Source: a virus. Taken from it: 64,000 nucleotides of DNA. Positions 4,803 to 63,046 of this stretch are shown here, in pieces; position 1 is the stretch's first letter; every line of letters begins with the position of its first letter. The notes below the pieces were generated by a model. That model was not told where the DNA came from. It did not search any database and saw nothing but the letters and a program-made list of their open reading frames with translations. The stretch lies in the IMG/VR virus record IMGVR_UViG_3300043446_000617, positions 4,219 through 68,218 of that record. One strand, given 5' to 3'. Position numbers and translations under genes: made by a program.

Positions 4803-4846
4803 AGAGTACCAAAGAAAAAAGAAAAAAACATAGGGATAAACCCTTA
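4803..4846 (-). promoter_or_regulatory. Putative early promoter: TAAGGGTTTATCCCTA, 22 nt, TACTCT
   Basis: Recurrent motif and spacing. Confidence 0.6.
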
Positions 4847-5226: not shown

Positions 5227-5396
5227 ACTTAACATAACAACTTAACATAATATTGCTTGAGTGTTGTAGAAATGTCACAAGGGTAAACCCTCATGTATGC
5301 CTGGACAGTACTGGACGGATCGACAGTAGGGTAAACGAGAAGTATGGGGGGGAGGGGGTAGTCGGTGGCTTAGGATATTTGTGGTACACCACCCCC
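5227..5396. promoter_or_regulatory. Cluster of protein-binding-like sites upstream of terS
   Basis: ACTTAACATAA x2, TGT-N12-ACA, AGGGTAAACCCT, TACTG-N10-CAGTA, G-rich tract. Confidence 0.55.
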
Positions 5397-5427
5397 ACAG
5401 TAAAAAGCAAAACCAAAAGGAGTACAA

Positions 5428-29292: not shown

Positions 29293-29471
29293 CTTATCCT
29301 CCGCAGCGGAATATCTAATTTCTCTGGTGGTGGAGGAGTCATGTTCTCTGAAGGAGGAGTCCATCCATGCTTTCTCCAAAGGGCTTGGACATCCGATCCT
29401 GATTCCCATTTAAAGTCTTTCAAGGGAATAGATGGATAGCTAATCTTTGAATGTGGTGGTTTTTCAATCAT
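29289..29471 (-). CDS. Small Pro-rich conserved protein
   Basis: Homologue at 62535. Confidence 0.7.
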   Translation of the reverse strand: MIEKPPHSKISYPSIPLKDFKWESGSDVQALWRKHGWTPPSENMTPPPPEKLDIPLRRIR

Positions 29472-29782
29472 ACTGTCCACTCCCTTTCTGCACGACCTGA
29501 GTCTGATTTGACTGTCTTACCAGTTAATTTGATAAGTCCAATCTTCTGCATTTCTCCCAAACGCCTGGCAACCTGATTTGAGTCTAGGTTTGTCATGGCT
29601 GAGATTCCATCTTTACCAAGTGGCCCATAAGTCTGCAGGCACTCTAAGATTATTTGGAAGTGGTGGGCAACAACAGGCTTGATTGCTTCTGCCGCCTCAT
29701 GTGATGTTACAGGGTCTGTTTTCCTGACTCTAGGAAACTCAGACAAGTTAAACATTCTGTCAAAAGCACTTTTAATATCCAT
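29468..29782 (-). CDS. Winged-helix DNA-binding protein
   Basis: R.TDP.TSHEAA leader plus wHTH ending SGR.ER.W; homologue at 62714. Confidence 0.7.
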   Translation of the reverse strand: MDIKSAFDRMFNLSEFPRVRKTDPVTSHEAAEAIKPVVAHHFQIILECLQTYGPLGKDGISAMTNLDSNQVARRLGEMQKIGLIKLTGKTVKSDSGRAEREWTV

Positions 29783-32441: not shown

Positions 32442-32654
32442 ATGGTTTATTCAAGAAAAGTTGTATCAAATGTTGGAGACAGAGTTGTATTGGAAAAAGC
32501 CGAAGCAAGGGAAATATTCCGCTCTTGGCAGACAACCAGAGATAACGACTTTGTTCGTGCCAGACTTGAGCGTTGCGAAAGAATCTATGGAACTGGAGCA
32601 AGAGATCGAGTCCGTTTTTATATGCGTCAAATGAAAGAAGGACAAATTGAATGA
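32442..32654 (+). CDS. Hypothetical basic protein
   Basis: Open ORF coupled to MTase beta start. Confidence 0.6.
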   Translation: MVYSRKVVSNVGDRVVLEKAEAREIFRSWQTTRDNDFVRARLERCERIYGTGARDRVRFYMRQMKEGQIE

Positions 32655-33648
32655 GTTGGCTAATCAGCAGGGCCTTAATGAACTCGCTCTCTTCGCAGGA
32701 GCAGGTGGAGGCATTCTCGGAGGACACCTCCTTGGATGGAGAACAGTCTGTGCAGTTGAATGGGAGCAATACCCAGCTAGCGTATTGTGCGCAAGACAAA
32801 ATGATGGGTTTCTCCCGCCTTTCCCGATTTGGGATGACGTTCAAACCTTTGATGGAAGACCTTGGCGAGGAATTGTTGATGTCGTATCTGGCGGGTTTCC
32901 ATGCCAAGACATCTCAGCCGCAGGAAAAGGTGTCGGAATCGATGGAGAGCGGTCAGGAATGTGGCGAGAAATGGCGAGGATCATTCGTGAAGTACGACCC
33001 AGATTCGTCTTCGTGGAAAACTCACCAATGCTCACTTCTCGGGGACTTGGAGCCGTTCTCGGAGACTTGGCCTCAATGGGGTTTGATGCGAAATGGGGAG
33101 TGTTGGGAGCAAACGACATTGGAGCGAACCATCAGAGGGACAGGATTTGGATTAGAGGAGAACAAATGGGCAACTCCGACAACCATGGACAAACTTCCTC
33201 CGAAGTCTGCCCAAGCTTTGGAGAAAGAAGCAACACAAGCTCGACCTGGCAGAAGCAAACCTGCCAATCTAAGGGATCAGGTGAGCAATATGCAGAACTG
33301 GCCTACCCCGAACGCATGGGATGGCAAGAGAGGACCTCGGAGCGAGGAAAATCTGAAGAACAAGAAGCACCAAATCAACCTGATAACTGCAGTCAAACAA
33401 GCGGAGCGGGAGAAGCTTTTGCCAACACCAAACGCTCGGGATTGGAAGGACGGAAAGACTGCGGGAAACAGGAAGTCACCTGGACTTGGGGTGGTGGCGC
33501 ACCAATTGGAAACAGAGACTGGTGGGCAACTGAACCCAACGTGGGTCGAGTGGCTCATGGGGTGGCCGCTCGGATGGAGCGAATTAAAGCCATTGGTAAC
33601 GGACAAGTCCCCTTGTGCGCTGCCTCCGCATGGAGAGTCCTGAAATGA
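32647..33648 (+). CDS. C5-cytosine DNA methyltransferase, alpha chain
   Basis: LFAGAGG (I), GFPCQ (IV), VENSP (VI), HQRDR (VIII), GNGQVP (X). Confidence 0.9.
   Translation: MNELANQQGLNELALFAGAGGGILGGHLLGWRTVCAVEWEQYPASVLCARQNDGFLPPFPIWDDVQTFDGRPWRGIVDVVSGGFPCQDISAAGKGVGIDGERSGMWREMARIIREVRPRFVFVENSPMLTSRGLGAVLGDLASMGFDAKWGVLGANDIGANHQRDRIWIRGEQMGNSDNHGQTSSEVCPSFGERSNTSSTWQKQTCQSKGSGEQYAELAYPERMGWQERTSERGKSEEQEAPNQPDNCSQTSGAGEAFANTKRSGLEGRKDCGKQEVTWTWGGGAPIGNRDWWATEPNVGRVAHGVAARMERIKAIGNGQVPLCAASAWRVLK
32651..33643 (+). CDS. Overlapping MTase beta chain (motif IX-like, PTP repeats)
   Basis: 330 open codons in +1 frame; ATGA-coupled to upstream gene; LNPTWVEWLMGWP. Confidence 0.78.
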   Translation: MSWLISRALMNSLSSQEQVEAFSEDTSLDGEQSVQLNGSNTQLAYCAQDKMMGFSRLSRFGMTFKPLMEDLGEELLMSYLAGFHAKTSQPQEKVSESMESGQECGEKWRGSFVKYDPDSSSWKTHQCSLLGDLEPFSETWPQWGLMRNGECWEQTTLERTIRGTGFGLEENKWATPTTMDKLPPKSAQALEKEATQARPGRSKPANLRDQVSNMQNWPTPNAWDGKRGPRSEENLKNKKHQINLITAVKQAEREKLLPTPNARDWKDGKTAGNRKSPGLGVVAHQLETETGGQLNPTWVEWLMGWPLGWSELKPLVTDKSPCALPPHGES

Positions 33649-36407: not shown

Positions 36408-36458
36408 TTAGCGTTTAGTGAGTATTCGTAGAATTAGGGCTAGTGCAGCATAAATCAT
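36408..36458 (-). CDS. 16-aa micropeptide MIYAALALILRILTKR
   Basis: Homologue of 3299-3352; ATGA-coupled. Confidence 0.65.
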   Translation of the reverse strand: MIYAALALILRILTKR

Positions 36459-36703
36459 GGATGCTCCAAAATTGCTTCATTGTCACGATAGCATCCACCT
36501 AAACCAACCTCAATTACATAAATATCATTTTTGTATTCAATCCACCAGTCTTGGTCAATCCCAAAATCTCGTGAATGTTGAATTAATCCCTCTTTTAACT
36601 TTTCAATTGCTTTTTGTTTTGTTTCACCATATGAGGTGAAGATAAAATTATATGAATCAAATTTAGCTTTATAAAATGTAGGGCAGCCAGTATCTTTTTT
36701 CAT
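36455..36703 (-). CDS. Early hypothetical protein
   Basis: Start motif TTAATAGGACTCAACATG. Confidence 0.7.
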   Translation of the reverse strand: MKKDTGCPTFYKAKFDSYNFIFTSYGETKQKAIEKLKEGLIQHSRDFGIDQDWWIEYKNDIYVIEVGLGGCYRDNEAILEHP

Positions 36704-36714
36704 GTTGAGTCCTA

Positions 36715-37047
36715 TTAAAACTGTTGATATACAAAAGTGCCTGAATCTGTCAAACCAATGAAAATACATTGCTCCTCAAGAAAATTGATTAAATAATCAA
36801 GCATTTCGTTCTGCTCCATTCCATCGATTTCTTTTTCTAGTTTATAACCATAAACCAGCTCAGGAATGGTTTGTTCTACATATTCACAGCAAATGGCAAT
36901 TGGGTCAAACTCAATTTCTTCGCCAATATCACGTTCGTATTGCTCGAAATACTCAAACATCATAATCAGCGCCTCACGAGAGAAATTATTTGGGCGTAAT
37001 AAATCAAATTGATTGATAAATTCGTGGCAGTTAATTGTTTGTTTCAT
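36715..37047 (-). CDS. Acidic early protein (NFS.EAL..F.Y..E.DPIAICC)
   Basis: Start motif TTAATAGGTGTAAACATG. Confidence 0.75.
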   Translation of the reverse strand: MKQTINCHEFINQFDLLRPNNFSREALIMMFEYFEQYERDIGEEIEFDPIAICCEYVEQTIPELVYGYKLEKEIDGMEQNEMLDYLINFLEEQCIFIGLTDSGTFVYQQF

Positions 37048-37077
37048 GTTTACACCTATTAAAAAATTATTGAGTTA

Positions 37078-37275
37078 TTAATGCCAGGTAATGCGGATTC
37101 GTGATGATTCCCAAACCAGTAAATCCGATCTGCGAATCAATACCTCATCATCACCTTGTCGCATGAGTCGTGCATTGTCAAAGTCTAGGACAGTTGAAAA
37201 GCCTTGTGAATAGTAATGCGCAATTGCCTCTGCTCCACTAGCAAAGGTCAAGCATTCAAGCTTTTGAGTTTTCAT
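37078..37275 (-). CDS. Early hypothetical protein
   Basis: Start motif AAAAGGCGTAAACATG. Confidence 0.7.
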   Translation of the reverse strand: MKTQKLECLTFASGAEAIAHYYSQGFSTVLDFDNARLMRQGDDEVLIRRSDLLVWESSRIRITWH

Positions 37276-37296
37276 GTTTACGCCTTTTTAATAAGA

Positions 37297-37587
37297 TTAG
37301 ACAAAAATTTCTGTTGGTGCAGCTTTCAACATATCTGATAATTTTGTACTGAAATGCTTAAAGCTTTTATATAAAACATTTATTTCGTTTTTTTCTTTAT
37401 TCTCTTGATATATGCGTTCAATAATTGCATATTTATCATGAATGCAATTTAATTGTTTAGCATGATTTGTAAAAGATAAAATATTATGTCCACTTATATG
37501 AACAAGTAACTCAAGATTATCTGTCTCAATTGTTAGAGTTGGATTTCTAAGAGTTGGGACATGGCTATATTCAATTGTATATTTCAT
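37297..37587 (-). CDS. AT-rich early hypothetical protein
   Basis: Start motif TTAATAGGTGTCAAAATG. Confidence 0.65.
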   Translation of the reverse strand: MKYTIEYSHVPTLRNPTLTIETDNLELLVHISGHNILSFTNHAKQLNCIHDKYAIIERIYQENKEKNEINVLYKSFKHFSTKLSDMLKAAPTEIFV

Positions 37588-37598
37588 TTTGACACCTA

Positions 37599-37778
37599 TT
37601 AAGAATTTTTTGCAATAAGGTTAAAAGACTTGAAATAGGCACTAGCTGCCCTGTAAGTATCGGTCATGACCTTATCAACTAGTTCACCTCGTTTGTAAAG
37701 CTTCACCACATAATAGCCACTTGGGAATGTGCGCTCAAATGTTGTATAATTTCCATTCTTTTGTTCTTTGATTTTCAT
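37599..37778 (-). CDS. Early hypothetical protein
   Basis: Start motif TTAAAAGGAGTTAATATG. Confidence 0.7.
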   Translation of the reverse strand: MKIKEQKNGNYTTFERTFPSGYYVVKLYKRGELVDKVMTDTYRAASAYFKSFNLIAKNS

Positions 37779-37814
37779 ATTAACTCCTTTTAAAAAAAAT
37801 CGATAATCAGCCAA

Positions 37815-38234
37815 TCATGCACACAAGAAATCATTATAGATTTCTGGATAACAAACCCGAACATAATCTGTAGCTTTTTCCATAGCCTCATCAAGATTAG
37901 AACTAAGAATCATTTCTGGTTGGCCTTGGTCAAACAATTGAATTGCTCCATTGGTCAACAAAACAATAGTAATAATGCCATCGCCATCACAACAGTAAGT
38001 GCCAATTTCGTAGACTGTTGGGTCATCATCTAAGGCATAACCTCCAACCCAAAAATCCCAACCCTCAAATTTTTTAGGACTATAAAAGTCTGTTGGCTTA
38101 TCGCAGAGTTTGTTGGTGTTGTAGACAAAACATTGCCCAAGTCTGGTTTCTTGGATTTTTTCGCCTGTGGTTATGTCGGTATAAATCGCCCGAATGTCTT
38201 GGAAATTTACTTCTTGTTTAACCCATTTTTTCAT
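37815..38234 (-). CDS. Early hypothetical protein
   Basis: Start motif TTAATAGGTGTCAACATG. Confidence 0.7.
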   Translation of the reverse strand: MKKWVKQEVNFQDIRAIYTDITTGEKIQETRLGQCFVYNTNKLCDKPTDFYSPKKFEGWDFWVGGYALDDDPTVYEIGTYCCDGDGIITIVLLTNGAIQLFDQGQPEMILSSNLDEAMEKATDYVRVCYPEIYNDFLCA

Positions 38235-38268
38235 GTTGACACCTATTAAAAGTTGATTAAGAAAAGAC

Positions 38269-38312
38269 ATTGTAGTCAATAGTCAATGCCTGGAAAACTA
38301 GGGAAAACCCTA
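38269..38312 (-). promoter_or_regulatory. Internal early promoter: TAGGGTTTTCCCTA, 24 nt, TACAAT
   Basis: Recurrent motif and spacing; near-consensus -10. Confidence 0.7.
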
Positions 38313-38331
38313 TGATTTGGCTGCACGCCTA

Positions 38332-38427
38332 TTATTTGAATAAAACATCAAAGTAAGCCAACAACCCTACACAAAGGGAAAGGCCAACAAGAATGGCGGT
38401 TAGGATATCTTTGTGGTTGTCATTCAT
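38332..38427 (-). CDS. 31-aa membrane peptide
   Basis: MNDNHKDILTAILVGLSLCVGLLAYFDVLFK; homologue at 4661. Confidence 0.75.
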   Translation of the reverse strand: MNDNHKDILTAILVGLSLCVGLLAYFDVLFK

Positions 38428-38738
38428 GCCCATGCTCCCCAAGTCTGATTAACTTTGTTGACAAGCTCTTCCCAAGAATCTGTAGTGAAGAGGACATTGT
38501 CATACGATTCAATGTCTAAGTCTTCATCATTGATAGGGTTCAAGCAAAGGGTGAATTGTTTGCCTCCACCCTCTCTACGATTTGGGTTTTTGAAGTTAAC
38601 CCACAAAACCAAATCATGTGTAGCATTGAATTGGCTATAGAAGCTTGGGCAAACATCGTTCCGATAAGACTTATCTGTGAAGCCCTCAAGGAATGGGATA
38701 TCAAAGTCAAAAGTTGGAAATTCCGATCTGTAGCTCAT
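38424..38738 (-). CDS. Early hypothetical protein (D.S..ND.CPSF)
   Basis: Start motif TTAAAGGTGTAAACATG. Confidence 0.7.
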   Translation of the reverse strand: MSYRSEFPTFDFDIPFLEGFTDKSYRNDVCPSFYSQFNATHDLVLWVNFKNPNRREGGGKQFTLCLNPINDEDLDIESYDNVLFTTDSWEELVNKVNQTWGAWA

Positions 38739-38740
38739 GT

Positions 38741-39007
38741 TTACACCTTTAAAGATTTGATAGTTTTCACAAGAAAAGATTTTGAGGGTTCTACACAAGG
38801 GGAAAGAACGTACTTACCCGAATAATTTGAACCTTGCCATTTGCTCTCATGCTCAAAGATGAAGTCATCATAGCCAAGGGCATTGTGAACACCTTTGGCA
38901 TTAGTCTTGAATTGCAACATAAGATCGGAAACGAAAATTGCCTTTTCTGTTTCAAGATATCTATCTAAGACGAATTGTCTGATTCTTTGGACTTCTTCAA
39001 TTTTCAT
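38741..39007 (-). CDS. First early gene, hypothetical
   Basis: Start motif AATAGGTGTAAATATG. Confidence 0.7.
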   Translation of the reverse strand: MKIEEVQRIRQFVLDRYLETEKAIFVSDLMLQFKTNAKGVHNALGYDDFIFEHESKWQGSNYSGKYVLSPCVEPSKSFLVKTIKSLKV

Positions 39008-39040
39008 ATTTACACCTATTGATTGATTGAACACACAGAT

Positions 39041-39084
39041 AGGATAGCAACAAAAAAACAAAAAACTATTAGGACAAACCCTAA
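39041..39084 (-). promoter_or_regulatory. Early promoter: TTAGGGTTTGTCCTA, 23 nt, TGcTATCCT
   Basis: Orthologous to 4803-4846. Confidence 0.65.
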
Positions 39085-39128
39085 TAAAGTACAATTATTT
39101 TAAATTAATTATCAGACGAGGGAAAACA

Positions 39129-39350
39129 ATGGCTAGACCTCCCAAAATTGATACTGTTCAGTTTCGCAGAAAACTAGACAACCCTAAACGACAAATCCTT
39201 TTAACAGTTGGACAAGGGAATATTTCCCAAGGATTCGAAAACCTTTTAGCCCTTTATCAACATCTGCATTCATTGGGATACAGAATAGATGAACCTTTTG
39301 AAAGACTAGGGTTAGTTACTAACTCTGTCGGAAATAAACAACAACCCTAA
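39129..39350 (+). CDS. Small putative DNA-binding regulator (RHH-like)
   Basis: Homologue at 4892. Confidence 0.55.
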   Translation: MARPPKIDTVQFRRKLDNPKRQILLTVGQGNISQGFENLLALYQHLHSLGYRIDEPFERLGLVTNSVGNKQQP

Positions 39351-39445
39351 ACAGAGGATTGTCTACTAAGGTTAGATAAGGATAGATAGAAGGAATAAGT
39401 AAGGGTAAGACAAGCTAGTCCAAATCCAAGTACCCTAAAAAAGGT

Positions 39446-39640
39446 GCATAAGAATCATTCGCATTTACCTAAACACAAATGAGAATTATTCGCATCTAGC
39501 TGCTTACCTGGTTATTTATACAGTAGGGAAAACCCTCATGTATGCCTGGACAGTACTGGACAGATCAACAGTAGGGTAAACGAGAAGTATGGGGGGGAGG
39601 GGGTAGTCGGTGGCTTGAGATATTTGTGGTACACCCCCCA
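39446..39640. promoter_or_regulatory. Cluster of Fur-like (x2), LexA-like (x2-3) and TAGGGAAAACCCT sites upstream of terS
   Basis: AAATGAGAATTATTCGCAT; CTGGTTATTTATACAG; TACTGGACAGATCAACAGTA. Confidence 0.62.
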
Positions 39641-39674
39641 TTCAGAAAAAGCTAAAACCATCCAAGGAGGACAA

Positions 39675-40052
39675 ATGGAAGCGCGATTGAAAAGAGGAAG
39701 AGGAAGACCTAAAGGGTCGGTGAAGATGACGATACAGAGGTTTGCTGATAACCCGCCTGCTGTATTGCCTAAGACAGACCACCAGAGGCTCAAGGAGTTG
39801 AAGGAGTTGATGATCAGGAGTGGAGGTAAGGATGTTGCTCAGAAGGTCATAGAGATAGCTCTGAATGACGACCATCCACACCAATTGGTTGCTTTGAAGA
39901 TGTGCTTAGACAGGACATTGCCTATTTCCATGTTTGAAAAGGATAAGAGCCAAAGGTCTGCTGTGACGATTAACATTACAGGACTTGGTGAGCCTACTGT
40001 TATTGATACGAATCCTGATGAACCCCAAGATGTAGAGGCTAAATATGGCTGA
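39675..40052 (+). CDS. terS: Terminase small subunit
   Basis: Homologue at 5428; RBS AAGGAGG. Confidence 0.7.
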   Translation: MEARLKRGRGRPKGSVKMTIQRFADNPPAVLPKTDHQRLKELKELMIRSGGKDVAQKVIEIALNDDHPHQLVALKMCLDRTLPISMFEKDKSQRSAVTINITGLGEPTVIDTNPDEPQDVEAKYG

Positions 40053-41304
40053 CCTTAATTTCTCTCTACTACCCTGGCAACAAGAAGTCTTCAAAGACCA
40101 AACGAGGTTTAAGGTAGTGGCTGCTGGTCGTAGGTGTGGTAAGTCTAGGATGGCGGCAGTAACGCTCTTGATTGAGGGTTTAAAGTGTCCACAAGGCTCT
40201 GCTGTGCTTTATGTATCACCTACTATGGGACAGTCAAGACAGATTATCTGGGACTTGTTGTTAGACCTTGGTAGAGACATTATCCAGAACAGTCATGTGA
40301 ACAACTTGGATATCACTCTGATAAACGGAGCAAGAATCTATGTTCGTGGTGCTGACAGACCAGATACCCTTCGTGGTGTGTCTCTAACGTATGCCGTACT
40401 AGACGAGGTAGCCGATATCAAGCCTGAAGCATGGGAACAGGTTATCCGAGCATCTCTATCTGATAAACGAGGAAGAGCCTTGTTTATTGGGACTCCTAAA
40501 GGGCGTAATTGGTTCTACGATACCTTTAAATTGGGCGAGAGTGAGGATGATCCTGATTGGAAGTCCTGGCACTTCACCACCGCAGACAACCCTTTGATTG
40601 ACCAAAAAGAGATTGAATCTGCCAAGAAGACCCTGAGTTCCTTTGCTTTCAAACAAGAGTACATGGCGAGCTTTACCAATGCGGGTTCAGACATCTTCAA
40701 GGAAGAATGGATTAAGTATGGTGTTGAGCCTCAATATGGAAGCTATTACATTGCTGTAGACCTAGCAGGATTTGAAGAGGTTGCCAAACAAGCCGCTAAC
40801 TCTAAGAAGCGTCTTGATGAGTCTGCTATCTCGATTGTGAAGGTTACTGACGATGGGAAGTGGTTTGTTCAGAAGATTGAACACGGAAGATGGGACATTC
40901 GGGAGACTGCTGCCAAGATATTGGTTGCTATTCGGGACTATAGACCTTTGGCAGTAGGGATTGAGCGGGGGGCGCTAAAGAACGCTGTTTTACCCTATCT
41001 GAGTGACCTAATGCGAAAAAACAACACATTTGCGCATATCGTTGATTTGACTCATGGAAACAGAAAAAAAGCTGACAGGATAATCTGGGCTTTACAAGGA
41101 AGGTTCGAGCATGGCAGAATTGTGTTAAATTCTGAGGAAGATTGGGATGAGTTCGTAGACCAGTTAATCCTGTTCCCTGCTCAAGGAGTTCACGATGACT
41201 TGCCTGACTCCCTTAGTTACATTGACCAACTTGCTGTTACATCTTACATGGAAGAAGATGACAGTGAGGAATGGACACCAGTAGATATTATTTCAGGGGT
41301 ATAG
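40045..41304 (+). CDS. terL: Terminase large subunit
   Basis: Walker A/B and nuclease motifs. Confidence 0.95.
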   Translation: MADLNFSLLPWQQEVFKDQTRFKVVAAGRRCGKSRMAAVTLLIEGLKCPQGSAVLYVSPTMGQSRQIIWDLLLDLGRDIIQNSHVNNLDITLINGARIYVRGADRPDTLRGVSLTYAVLDEVADIKPEAWEQVIRASLSDKRGRALFIGTPKGRNWFYDTFKLGESEDDPDWKSWHFTTADNPLIDQKEIESAKKTLSSFAFKQEYMASFTNAGSDIFKEEWIKYGVEPQYGSYYIAVDLAGFEEVAKQAANSKKRLDESAISIVKVTDDGKWFVQKIEHGRWDIRETAAKILVAIRDYRPLAVGIERGALKNAVLPYLSDLMRKNNTFAHIVDLTHGNRKKADRIIWALQGRFEHGRIVLNSEEDWDEFVDQLILFPAQGVHDDLPDSLSYIDQLAVTSYMEEDDSEEWTPVDIISGV

Positions 41305-62538: not shown

Positions 62539-62717
62539 CTAACTCTCCTTAAAGGTTCTTGATACTTCTCTGGTGGTGGGGCAATCATCTTTTCTGAAGG
62601 AGGAGTCCATCCATACTTTCTCCATATTGCTTGAACATCAGAACCAGATGACCATTTGAAATCCTTGTTTGGCACAGAGGGATAACTGATCTTTGAATAA
62701 GGTGGTTTTTCAATCAT
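62535..62717 (-). CDS. Small Pro-rich protein
   Basis: Homologue at 29289. Confidence 0.7.
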   Translation of the reverse strand: MIEKPPYSKISYPSVPNKDFKWSSGSDVQAIWRKYGWTPPSEKMIAPPPEKYQEPLRRVR

Positions 62718-63046
62718 TTTGCTTGCATCACTCGTTGTTTGCGACCAGAGCGACCTACTTTGACTCCAGTAATTTCAATGAATCCCTTGTCTAACAAAGC
62801 CTTGTATCTTGCTGTTATTGAGGAATATGGGTACTGCGGGAACAACTCTAAGACTTCATCTGAAATACAGCCCTCTGGGAAGCCTTTAATGGCCTCATAG
62901 ACCATTTGTTCGAGCTTGGTGGTGTCAACTACTTGAGCCGCTTCGTGACTCGTTGTAGGGTCTTCTTTTCGTACCAACTTAAATGGTGGAGAGCCAAAAA
63001 ATTTCTCTACTTGTCCACCAAACCATGTTTTATCTAATGTCATCAT
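62714..63046 (-). CDS. Winged-helix protein
   Basis: DP.TSHEAA and SGRKQRV. Confidence 0.7.
   Translation of the reverse strand: MMTLDKTWFGGQVEKFFGSPPFKLVRKEDPTTSHEAAQVVDTTKLEQMVYEAIKGFPEGCISDEVLELFPQYPYSSITARYKALLDKGFIEITGVKVGRSGRKQRVMQAK

Follow-up and report, generated by a model that had tools for sequence, protein, structure and literature searches.

Sites for host regulators occur in phage genomes, as in the cyanophages, which carry PhoB and NtcA sites. Phage co-option of such regulators has been established for LexA, Spo0A and CtrA (excerpt of PMC9437464). In the phages GIL01, CTX-phi, 186 and SPC32H, host LexA boxes in the control region replace or supplement the phage repressor, and in virulent phages, namely phi29 with Spo0A and alphaproteobacterial phages with CtrA, several sites for the host regulator tie the phage cycle to the state of the host (excerpt of PMC9437464). 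In colicin operons, LexA boxes of the CTGT-N8-ACAG type come in twos, next to each other or overlapping, with room for two LexA dimers, and these double SOS operators precede a gene set whose expression kills the cell (excerpt of PMC2994835). In staphylococcal phages, the late-operon promoter before terS, the gene for the small terminase subunit, is under tight control of the activator RinA, whose small gene lies immediately ahead of this region (excerpt of PMC3152322). The present analysis concerns the 325-bp gap that separates ORF73, a small gene, from a terS-like gene in a virus sequence of 64,000 nucleotides (hereafter the window), which comprises bases 4219-68218 of the 68,218-bp IMG/VR virus record IMGVR_UViG_3300043446_000617. 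This gap harbors an array of LexA-type boxes, Fur-type boxes and other palindromes. It is read here, from sequence comparison and with about even confidence, as a modular control region of the late/packaging operon that would be gated by operators for host LexA and Fur, which share the stack with phage-specific sites.

The locus resembles each of the described systems in part. Its LexA-type boxes have the core and the tandem format of the colicin operators; unlike those, they lie before terminase genes, are interleaved with other palindromes and Fur-type boxes, and vary from zero to four in each region. As in GIL01, no integrase is present. The locus differs from the LexA-switch phages in that the boxes stand before terS and are combined with Fur-type boxes, and no antirepressor or co-repressor such as gp7 was identified here. 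In contrast to the deferment systems based on Spo0A and CtrA, the regulators concerned are Fur and LexA, the sites are gathered in one gap and not spread across promoters, and cassettes are exchanged among close relatives. The arrangement of a small gene directly before the region recalls RinA; however, ORF73 has no detectable relation to RinA, and neither an activator site nor a promoter is defined here. A full-text literature search, mostly at listing level, returned no Fur boxes before phage packaging or structural genes and no cassette-swapped stack of this kind. Co-option of LexA is already known; the apparently new part is the Fur boxes before packaging genes together with the cassette-swapped stack.

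All elements listed in a preliminary description of this DNA, made from the sequence alone, were recovered at the positions given there (Table 1). Both Fur-type boxes follow the 7-1-7 inverted repeat TGAnAAT-N-ATTnTCA, F2 with one and F1 with two mismatches to TGAGAAT-N-ATTCTCA, and their sites are the two exact matches in the window to the Fur-like pattern AGAATNATTCGCAT. With up to two mismatches, this pattern occurs six times in the window vs 2.04 expected, and one of 100 shuffles reached six. CTG-N10-CAG is not enriched over the window (14 matches vs 21.3 expected), and perfect CTGT-N8-ACAG is absent from it (1.58 expected). Three boxes with one mismatch nevertheless fall within a stretch of ~200 nt, vs ~0.06 per region in shuffles (3.7 boxes in 63 regions). 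Boxes b and c form a tandem pair, since box c starts 18 nt past box b. The window contains two head-to-tail units of ~34 kb with a mutual identity of 66-92% in a self-comparison, and because the record represents two diverged phage genomes in tandem, the other unit (unit 1) is usable as a natural relative of the unit under study (unit 2). Between the two, positions 39525-39637 differ at 5 of 113 nt (~96% identical; flanks, 74-80%), and the Fur-like part is wholly unconserved. The statement that the last LexA-like box retains its arms in unit 1 (5309-5328) while its spacer changes is correct; it rests on two substitutions, both in the spacer.

A relative of the terS-like protein is encoded by 554 IMG/VR contigs, the best 80 of which were studied. 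The loci were anchored on a G-tract, which lies at most 260 nt before the terS-like match in 76 loci; the contigs of the remaining four start downstream of it. LexA-type boxes (L) were scored as the 16-bp palindrome CTGT-N8-ACAG of the beta/gammaproteobacterial type and counted in the 200-nt stretch that precedes the G-tract (14,267 nt over 76 loci), and Fur-type boxes as the 7-1-7 repeat with up to 2 mismatches in 14 positions. The order of elements in the relatives is AAGG repeats, the leader AAGTACCCTnAAAAGGTGCATC, a variable cassette, palindromes of the form AGGGTAAACCCT (P) alternating with L boxes, the G-tract, a 70-nt core, the ribosome-binding site and terS. One or more of the following make up the variable cassette: F (a Fur-like palindrome), D (ACTTAACATAA twice), M (TAGGACAA three or four times), Q (TTATGC-N6-GCATAA) and V (GTTAT-N5-ATAAC twice). 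A strain variant with an M cassette also appears in the unitigs of run X1.

The sites are confined to these arrays. Perfect L boxes occur 53 times in the 14,267 nt of arrays vs none in the rest of those loci (371,588 nt). When one mismatch is allowed, 63 distinct upstream regions contain 98 L boxes vs 3.7 ± 1.9 in shuffles, with 52 of the 63 regions positive. It is these counts in relatives that give the sites their weight. At least one perfect L box is found in 36/63 distinct regions, and two L boxes lie 17-18 nt apart in 28/63. The 32 distinct perfect boxes give CTGTATGGATAGACAGTA, and the positions left free by the search agree with the classical TACTGTAT...ACAGTA (A at position 5 in 31/32, T at 17 in 26/32, A at 18 in 24/32). 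Fur-type sites number 41 in 22,110 nt (34/67 loci) vs 4 in 332,070 nt. Up to four L boxes and up to two Fur-type boxes are present in one region; relative to the G-tract, positions range from -15 to -181 nt for the L boxes and from -57 to -204 nt for the Fur-type boxes. The P palindrome is found in 51/63 distinct regions; L and F occur together in 29/63, and L, F and P in 25/63. Outside the arrays, four near-complete relatives and the two units of the record contain only three perfect L boxes, which is about the chance rate (1.58 per 64 kb).

The array motifs were then compared with two Burkholderiales genomes, a freshwater betaproteobacterial metagenome-assembled genome or MAG (G001) and Janthinobacterium (G002), with the reversed pattern as control. 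The Fur-type pattern TGAGAATNATTCKCA occurs 25 times in G002 (control, 1) and 6 times in G001 (0), and the LexA-type pattern ACTGTA-N7-ACAGT 19 (1) and 8 (0) times. The remaining motifs give no host-regulon enrichment in these two genomes: in G002 and G001, respectively, P has 0 (0) and 3 (5) matches, V 4 (11) and 3 (14), Q 22 (22) and 20 (24), D 0 (0) and 0 (0), and M 1 (0) and 0 (0). The bacterial F sites are located directly before two extracytoplasmic function (ECF) sigma genes, a HemS/ChuX haem gene, and binding-protein and permease genes of ATP-binding cassette (ABC) transporters, and one bacterial L site precedes imuA (NF033429, 2e-59). The 15-mer TGAGAATCATTCGCA, 52 nt before the HemS/ChuX gene in Janthinobacterium, is the core of many relatives' F sites. 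F and L, and only those two of the seven motifs, equal regulon motifs in the two genomes tested, and for this reason the Fur/LexA reading is well founded. The preliminary description had seen here a packed array of sites for Fur, LexA and other host factors; the Fur and LexA part stands, both types being non-random, and the "others" do not, as AGGGNAAACCCT and the other cassettes are not regulon motifs in these two genomes.

The phage itself seems to lack the cognate proteins. Six-frame searches with E values up to 1 found no LexA DNA-binding domain, no Fur and no S24 peptidase, nor any tyrosine or serine recombinase or ParB, in agreement with the earlier remark that no integrase is visible. 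An attP-type site was rejected because no integrase was found, and a plasmid-partition site in view of the missing ParB. The observation is hence that the sites exist, are confined to this gap and strongly enriched there, and match the motifs of iron and SOS genes of Burkholderiales, in a phage that has no homologue of either repressor. The phage is a widespread, uncultured one from freshwater, and its likely host is a Burkholderiales-type betaproteobacterium. A DNA search gave no cultured relative, and the best cultured match of its large terminase subunit (TerL) is that of Thermus phage phiFa, with 27% identity. Among 185,579 species genomes, the search for prophage copies or the host returned only misbinned MAG contigs with mixed labels and a 37% Janthinobacterium match.

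From these sites we infer binding by host LexA and Fur, a promoter position and a direction of effect, as follows. The fixed core would consist of the G-tract, a leader of ~70 nt and the ribosome-binding site, to which upstream cassettes would have been added and then shuffled between strains. Two kinds of cassette would be host-repressor operators, LexA (SOS) boxes and Fur boxes, and each of the frequent tandem LexA pairs at 18 nt would accommodate two neighboring dimers. Phage proteins are the probable ligands of the remaining kinds, namely the AGGGTAAACCCT palindromes and the cassettes D, M, Q and V. As long as the cell is undamaged and iron-replete, the stack would be occupied by LexA and Fe-Fur, which would hold down transcription that enters or starts before terS; they would act as operator-bound repressors or by blocking the read-through that comes from ORF73. 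Self-cleavage of LexA, after DNA damage or in response to single-stranded DNA from phage replication, would release the block, and loss of Fe-Fur under iron starvation would do likewise. Among the four roles proposed earlier for the array, the best fit is a gate that makes late transcription depend on the SOS and iron status.

Several points weigh against such a control region. First, the three LexA-like boxes of the window (39508, 39538 and 39556) have one mismatch each in the eight core positions, and since none of them is perfect, this genome may be under weak LexA control or in the course of losing it. Second, no plus-strand sigma-70-like promoter is found in window positions 38600-40100, and no sigma-70 promoter lies at a conserved position in 64 distinct relatives. 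Promoters do exist in this gap in at least one relative, because L085 (71% TerL identity) carries a perfect 12-of-12 sigma-70 promoter, TTGACA-17-TATAAT at 5393-5421, 170 nt before terS; its G-tract has the form TAGGGGGAGGGGG and comes after TTGACA and a 17-nt spacer, and this TTGACA-17 running into the G-tract is paralogous to the perfect promoter. Third, the relatives are homologous, so that the site counts, which show conservation and confinement, are not independent events and overstate their number. Fourth, every cassette is dispensable: a LexA-type box is missing from 11/63 regions, a Fur-type box from 29/63, and L, F and P altogether from 2/63, and L083 (84% TerL identity) keeps the G-tract behind unrelated upstream sequence with no array. 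Fifth, G001 and G002 are stand-ins for the host, to which a phage contig in a bin and a remote match to TerL had led. Finally, the array abuts genome-unique sequence directly before terS, where a packaging signal would also lie.

This location would also suit a packaging-initiation (cos or pac) site, at which terminase would recognize or cut the unique G-tract core, with the upstream palindromes being architectural sites for TerS or for bending or accessory proteins; the likeness to Fur and LexA boxes would then be incidental, or the host proteins would be architectural helpers. The lambda cos site is composed of cosQ-cosN-cosB, and there cosB and the host factor IHF have such an architectural part. 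The present locus is similar to it in having a site that is unique and immediately precedes the gene for the small terminase subunit, repeated binding elements and a putative host DNA-binding protein, and differs in that TerL is not of the lambda type and that the repeats are found on the upstream side of the unique core and not on its terS side. A packaging site would be unique and adjoin the small terminase gene, and the G-tract occurs once per genome and precedes the terS-like gene by ~85 nt. In more distant relatives such as L083, homology starts exactly at the G-tract, the ~96% identical segment shared by the two units shows the pattern expected of a recombination hot spot at DNA ends, and AAGG repeats with a 10-12-nt period lie upstream. 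Contig ends point to the same place: 12 of the 80 terS-selected contigs start within ~130 nt of the G-tract, and G003 (L110 and L060), which is 34,904 nt and one genome long and 100% complete by CheckV, has ends that overlap by 4 nt in the C-run ~47 nt past the G-tract. Other ends near this point are those of L173 (+10) and L191 (+1), and in L010 an inverted terS fragment is joined at the same spot. In a second, motif-based sample, however, contig ends fall on both sides of the G-tract, from -138 to +256 nt, with no pile-up at one base; assemblies would in any case break at the G-run, at the C-run and where conserved sequence gives way to variable sequence, and the near-complete contigs G006 and G007, as well as this record, run through. 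The Terminase_6N/Terminase_3 type of TerL, as opposed to the lambda GpA type, is a further, weak pointer away from such a site. The arrays, moreover, are individually dispensable and highly variable, while the terS-like protein is 88-97% conserved among relatives, and the identity of two of the seven motifs with regulon motifs of the host type would be left unexplained. On balance, a packaging site is an unlikely account of the gap.

Small clusters of contig ends are seen at the G-tract start and at the C-run ~47-50 nt later (L058, L014, L173, L191, L010 and G003). Physical ends, G-rich reads failing on either strand, or branching of the assembly graph at the conserved/variable boundary would each give the observed pattern of contig ends, and the public reads for four runs consist of assembled Logan unitigs, which cannot show termini. 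With the relatives' contig ends scattered in this way, the genome end or packaging start that the preliminary description had presumed beside the array could not be shown, and its suggestions that the array caps or shields the entering DNA end, or helps to pull the DNA in, are unsupported.

Returning to transcriptional control, a phage-encoded set of regulators might take the place of host LexA and Fur. All palindromes, the Fur-like and LexA-like ones included, would then be operators of phage regulators, and their likeness to host boxes would be mimicry or convergence. GIL01 offers a precedent in its LexA-like activator gp6. At the late promoter P3, this phage employs a LexA homologue that it encodes itself (excerpt of PMC6182141). 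One candidate is ORF73, which is small, helical, conserved and placed directly before the array: homologues are found in 58 of the 63 upstream regions examined, and 13 residues are invariant across 36 sequences. It may bind DNA, since its AlphaFold2 model, with a predicted local distance difference test (pLDDT) score of 75, shows an N-terminal arm and two helices (residues 18-27 and 32-49). ORF73 has no Pfam or PHROG match and no PDB fold match with E below 7, and Atlas gave only weak leads, among them a ribbon-helix-helix (RHH) fold at 0.86. The other candidate is a winged-helix protein at 62714-63046, whose unit-1 copy (29468-29782) has a weak HTH_24 match (E 0.00088, below the Pfam cut-off); this protein has no PDB relative by sequence. 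In addition, the P palindrome is fixed at 15-16 nt from the first LexA-like box, and because of this spacing the two could be one composite site. Against phage regulators for all sites stand the missing LexA, Fur and S24 domains noted above, the two clades of ORF73, which do not co-vary with cassette type, the identity of the Fur-type core to the site before hemS in Janthinobacterium, and the colicin-like tandem format of the LexA-type boxes. This alternative is accordingly thought quite improbable.

The sites could also be decoys, with replicating phage DNA soaking up Fur and LexA and thereby switching on host iron uptake and SOS functions to the benefit of the phage; their placement here would merely reflect the largest non-coding gap. 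The match to host operators, the presence of several sites per genome, the lack of a promoter that can be tied to them, and their dispensability and variable number would all suit titration. The strict position relative to the G-tract across relatives would not, nor would the last box, which abuts the G-tract in several lineages and so suggests a coupling of boxes to core; the few sites per genome may, besides, be too few to titrate a repressor. Titration by decoys is hence considered very improbable, and a control region gated by host LexA and Fur is retained as the preferred reading.

Other explanations of the gap were examined. An RNA element was rejected: the predicted fold of the 191-nt region does not surpass that of shuffled sequences (z = +1.4), and RNAalifold on 71 sequences found no consensus structure for the G-run and C-run. 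An intrinsic terminator after ORF73 is lacking on the plus strand, and a minus-strand hairpin at 39363-39340 is within chance. By eye only, a sigma-54 promoter was rejected because its spacing deviates by one nucleotide, and a G-quadruplex at the G-tract because the required fourth G-run is not conserved. The first G run (window 39591-39597) varies from 6 to 10 G among 76 relatives, with 13 G once (7 G in 25, 8 G in 39 and 9 G in 9), which reflects either a slippage-prone tract or homopolymer errors.

Table 1. Positions of the array elements and adjoining genes in the window
Feature	Position	Strand	Remarks
ORF73	39129..39350	+	small conserved gene directly upstream of the array
AAGG repeats	39367..39412		purine-rich, 10-12 nt spacing; read from sequence; same repeats in relatives
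Leader AAGTACCCTnAAAAGGTGCAT	39427..39449		conserved; ahead of the variable cassette in most relatives
Fur-type box F1	39446..39466		site GCATAAGAATCATTCGCATTT, core TAAGAATCATTCGCA; variable cassette of this unit, absent from unit 1
Fur-type box F2	39477..39497		site AAATGAGAATTATTCGCATCT, core TGAGAATTATTCGCA; center 31 nt from the F1 center
LexA-like box a	39508..39523		CTG-N10-CAG, CTGGTTATTTATACAG; one core mismatch; conserved in some relatives
P palindrome	39524..39537		TAGGGAAAACCCTC; phage-specific motif; recorded earlier as TAGGGAAAACCCT from 39524
LexA-like box b	39538..39553		ATG-N10-CAG, ATGTATGCCTGGACAG; left arm degenerate; relatives carry CTGTATGCCTGGACAG
LexA-like box c	39556..39571		CTGGACAGATCAACAG, within TACTG-N10-CAGTA 39554-39573; unit-1 copy differs in spacer only
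Half P site	39572..39583		TAGGGTAAACGA; recorded earlier as TAGGGTAAAC from 39572
G-tract	39591..39603	+	GGGGGGGAGGGGG; invariant anchor
Core	39604..39674	+	GT-rich stretch, AGATATTTGTGGTAC, C-run, GAAAAAGCTAAA, ribosome-binding site AAGGAGG; alignment of 71 distinct sequences
terS-like gene	39675..40052	+	125 aa; overlaps the terL start by 8 nt
terL	40045..41304	+	large terminase subunit; Pfam Terminase_6N 9e-16, Terminase_3 1.2e-8
Unit 1, cassette D	5227..5250		ACTTAACATAA twice, 13 nt apart; holds the place of the Fur-type boxes of unit 2
Unit 1, P palindrome to G-tract	5280..5358		P palindrome, two LexA-like boxes (5293-5308, 5311-5326), half P site, G-tract (5346-5358)

The flanking genes are only partly assigned. 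The C-termini of ORF73 vary among relatives, and the AAGG repeats of the relatives are partly read as its variable tail. The label of the terS-like gene is based on size, position, an AT-hook-like N-terminus and the 8-nt overlap with terL, and is to be taken as putative: the protein has no family match, a profile search against PDB found nothing, and its AlphaFold2 model (pLDDT 49) is unusable. The N-terminus, KRGRGRPKG, is present in all 68 distinct copies listed, bar one K-to-R change. Atlas look-ups gave unnamed viral clusters only, and in one cluster of terS-like relatives 15% of the members have Pfam AT_hook. In L084 (80% TerL identity), ~1 kb (1933-2926) separates the G-tract from terL, and by eye it contains an HNH/AP2-like reading frame that looks like a homing-endonuclease insertion.

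The AGGGNAAACCCT palindrome is not enriched across the window (22 matches vs 14.6 expected; 8 of 100 shuffles reach 22). It is also found in intergenic positions at 4832, 31286, 38300, 39071, 34912(-) and 1184(-), usually after an A/T run; some of these copies precede ORF73 or the first of the rightward early genes. A regulator of the phage may use the palindrome as its operator.

Each unit of the record encodes recombination and replication proteins (Sak, SSB, a replication-initiator fragment and RusA), a C5 methylase and a protein resembling 3′-phosphoadenosine 5′-phosphosulfate (PAPS) reductase, as well as a low-GC leftward cluster of small genes; then, rightward, follow ORF73, the 325-bp gap, the terS-like gene, terL, the portal gene, and structural and lysis genes. 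The 68-kb record is most likely not one 68-kb genome but an assembly walk across segments common to co-occurring strains. Besides the two diverged ~34-kb genomes, it contains ~0.6 kb of a third variant, and record bases 1-110 recur exactly at 67642-67751, near both record ends. The C5 cytosine-methyltransferase region has two long overlapping frames (32647-33648 and 32651-33643; 1-759 and 2-754 in the other unit), with N-terminal methylase motifs in one frame and the C-terminal part in the other. As this double frame is kept in both units, it looks like a real frameshift or overlapping genes, not a sequencing error. At 36455-39094 on the minus strand, ~8 small leftward genes have 35% GC vs ~43% elsewhere, almost no family matches (one PHROG, of unknown function) and no DNA-level counterpart in unit 1; this cluster is probably an accessory or moron region.

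The control region gated by host LexA and Fur may be extended, tentatively and with considerable doubt, to a plug-in sensor board, by which a phage that has neither an integrase nor a repressor of its own would gate particle production through interchangeable operator cassettes. The LexA cassette would read DNA damage or replication stress and the Fur cassette iron, D, M, Q, V and P would answer to further regulators, and co-infecting strains would swap cassettes by recombination at the conserved G-tract block. Because of such swapping, close relatives would differ in the host states that trigger or delay lysis, and a carrier-state or lytic-deferment strategy in abundant freshwater betaproteobacteria would follow. 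The exchange of cassettes among near-identical genomes is a natural experiment on the evolution of control regions in phages. The two motifs also give a clue to the host of this phage family, of which no member has been cultured: they indicate a beta- or gammaproteobacterium whose Fur box is of the GAGAAT type. Iron is a major control on freshwater bacteria, and should host Fur and LexA indeed be bound ahead of the packaging operon, virion production would be tied to the iron and DNA-damage state of the host without a repressor or an integrase of the phage itself.

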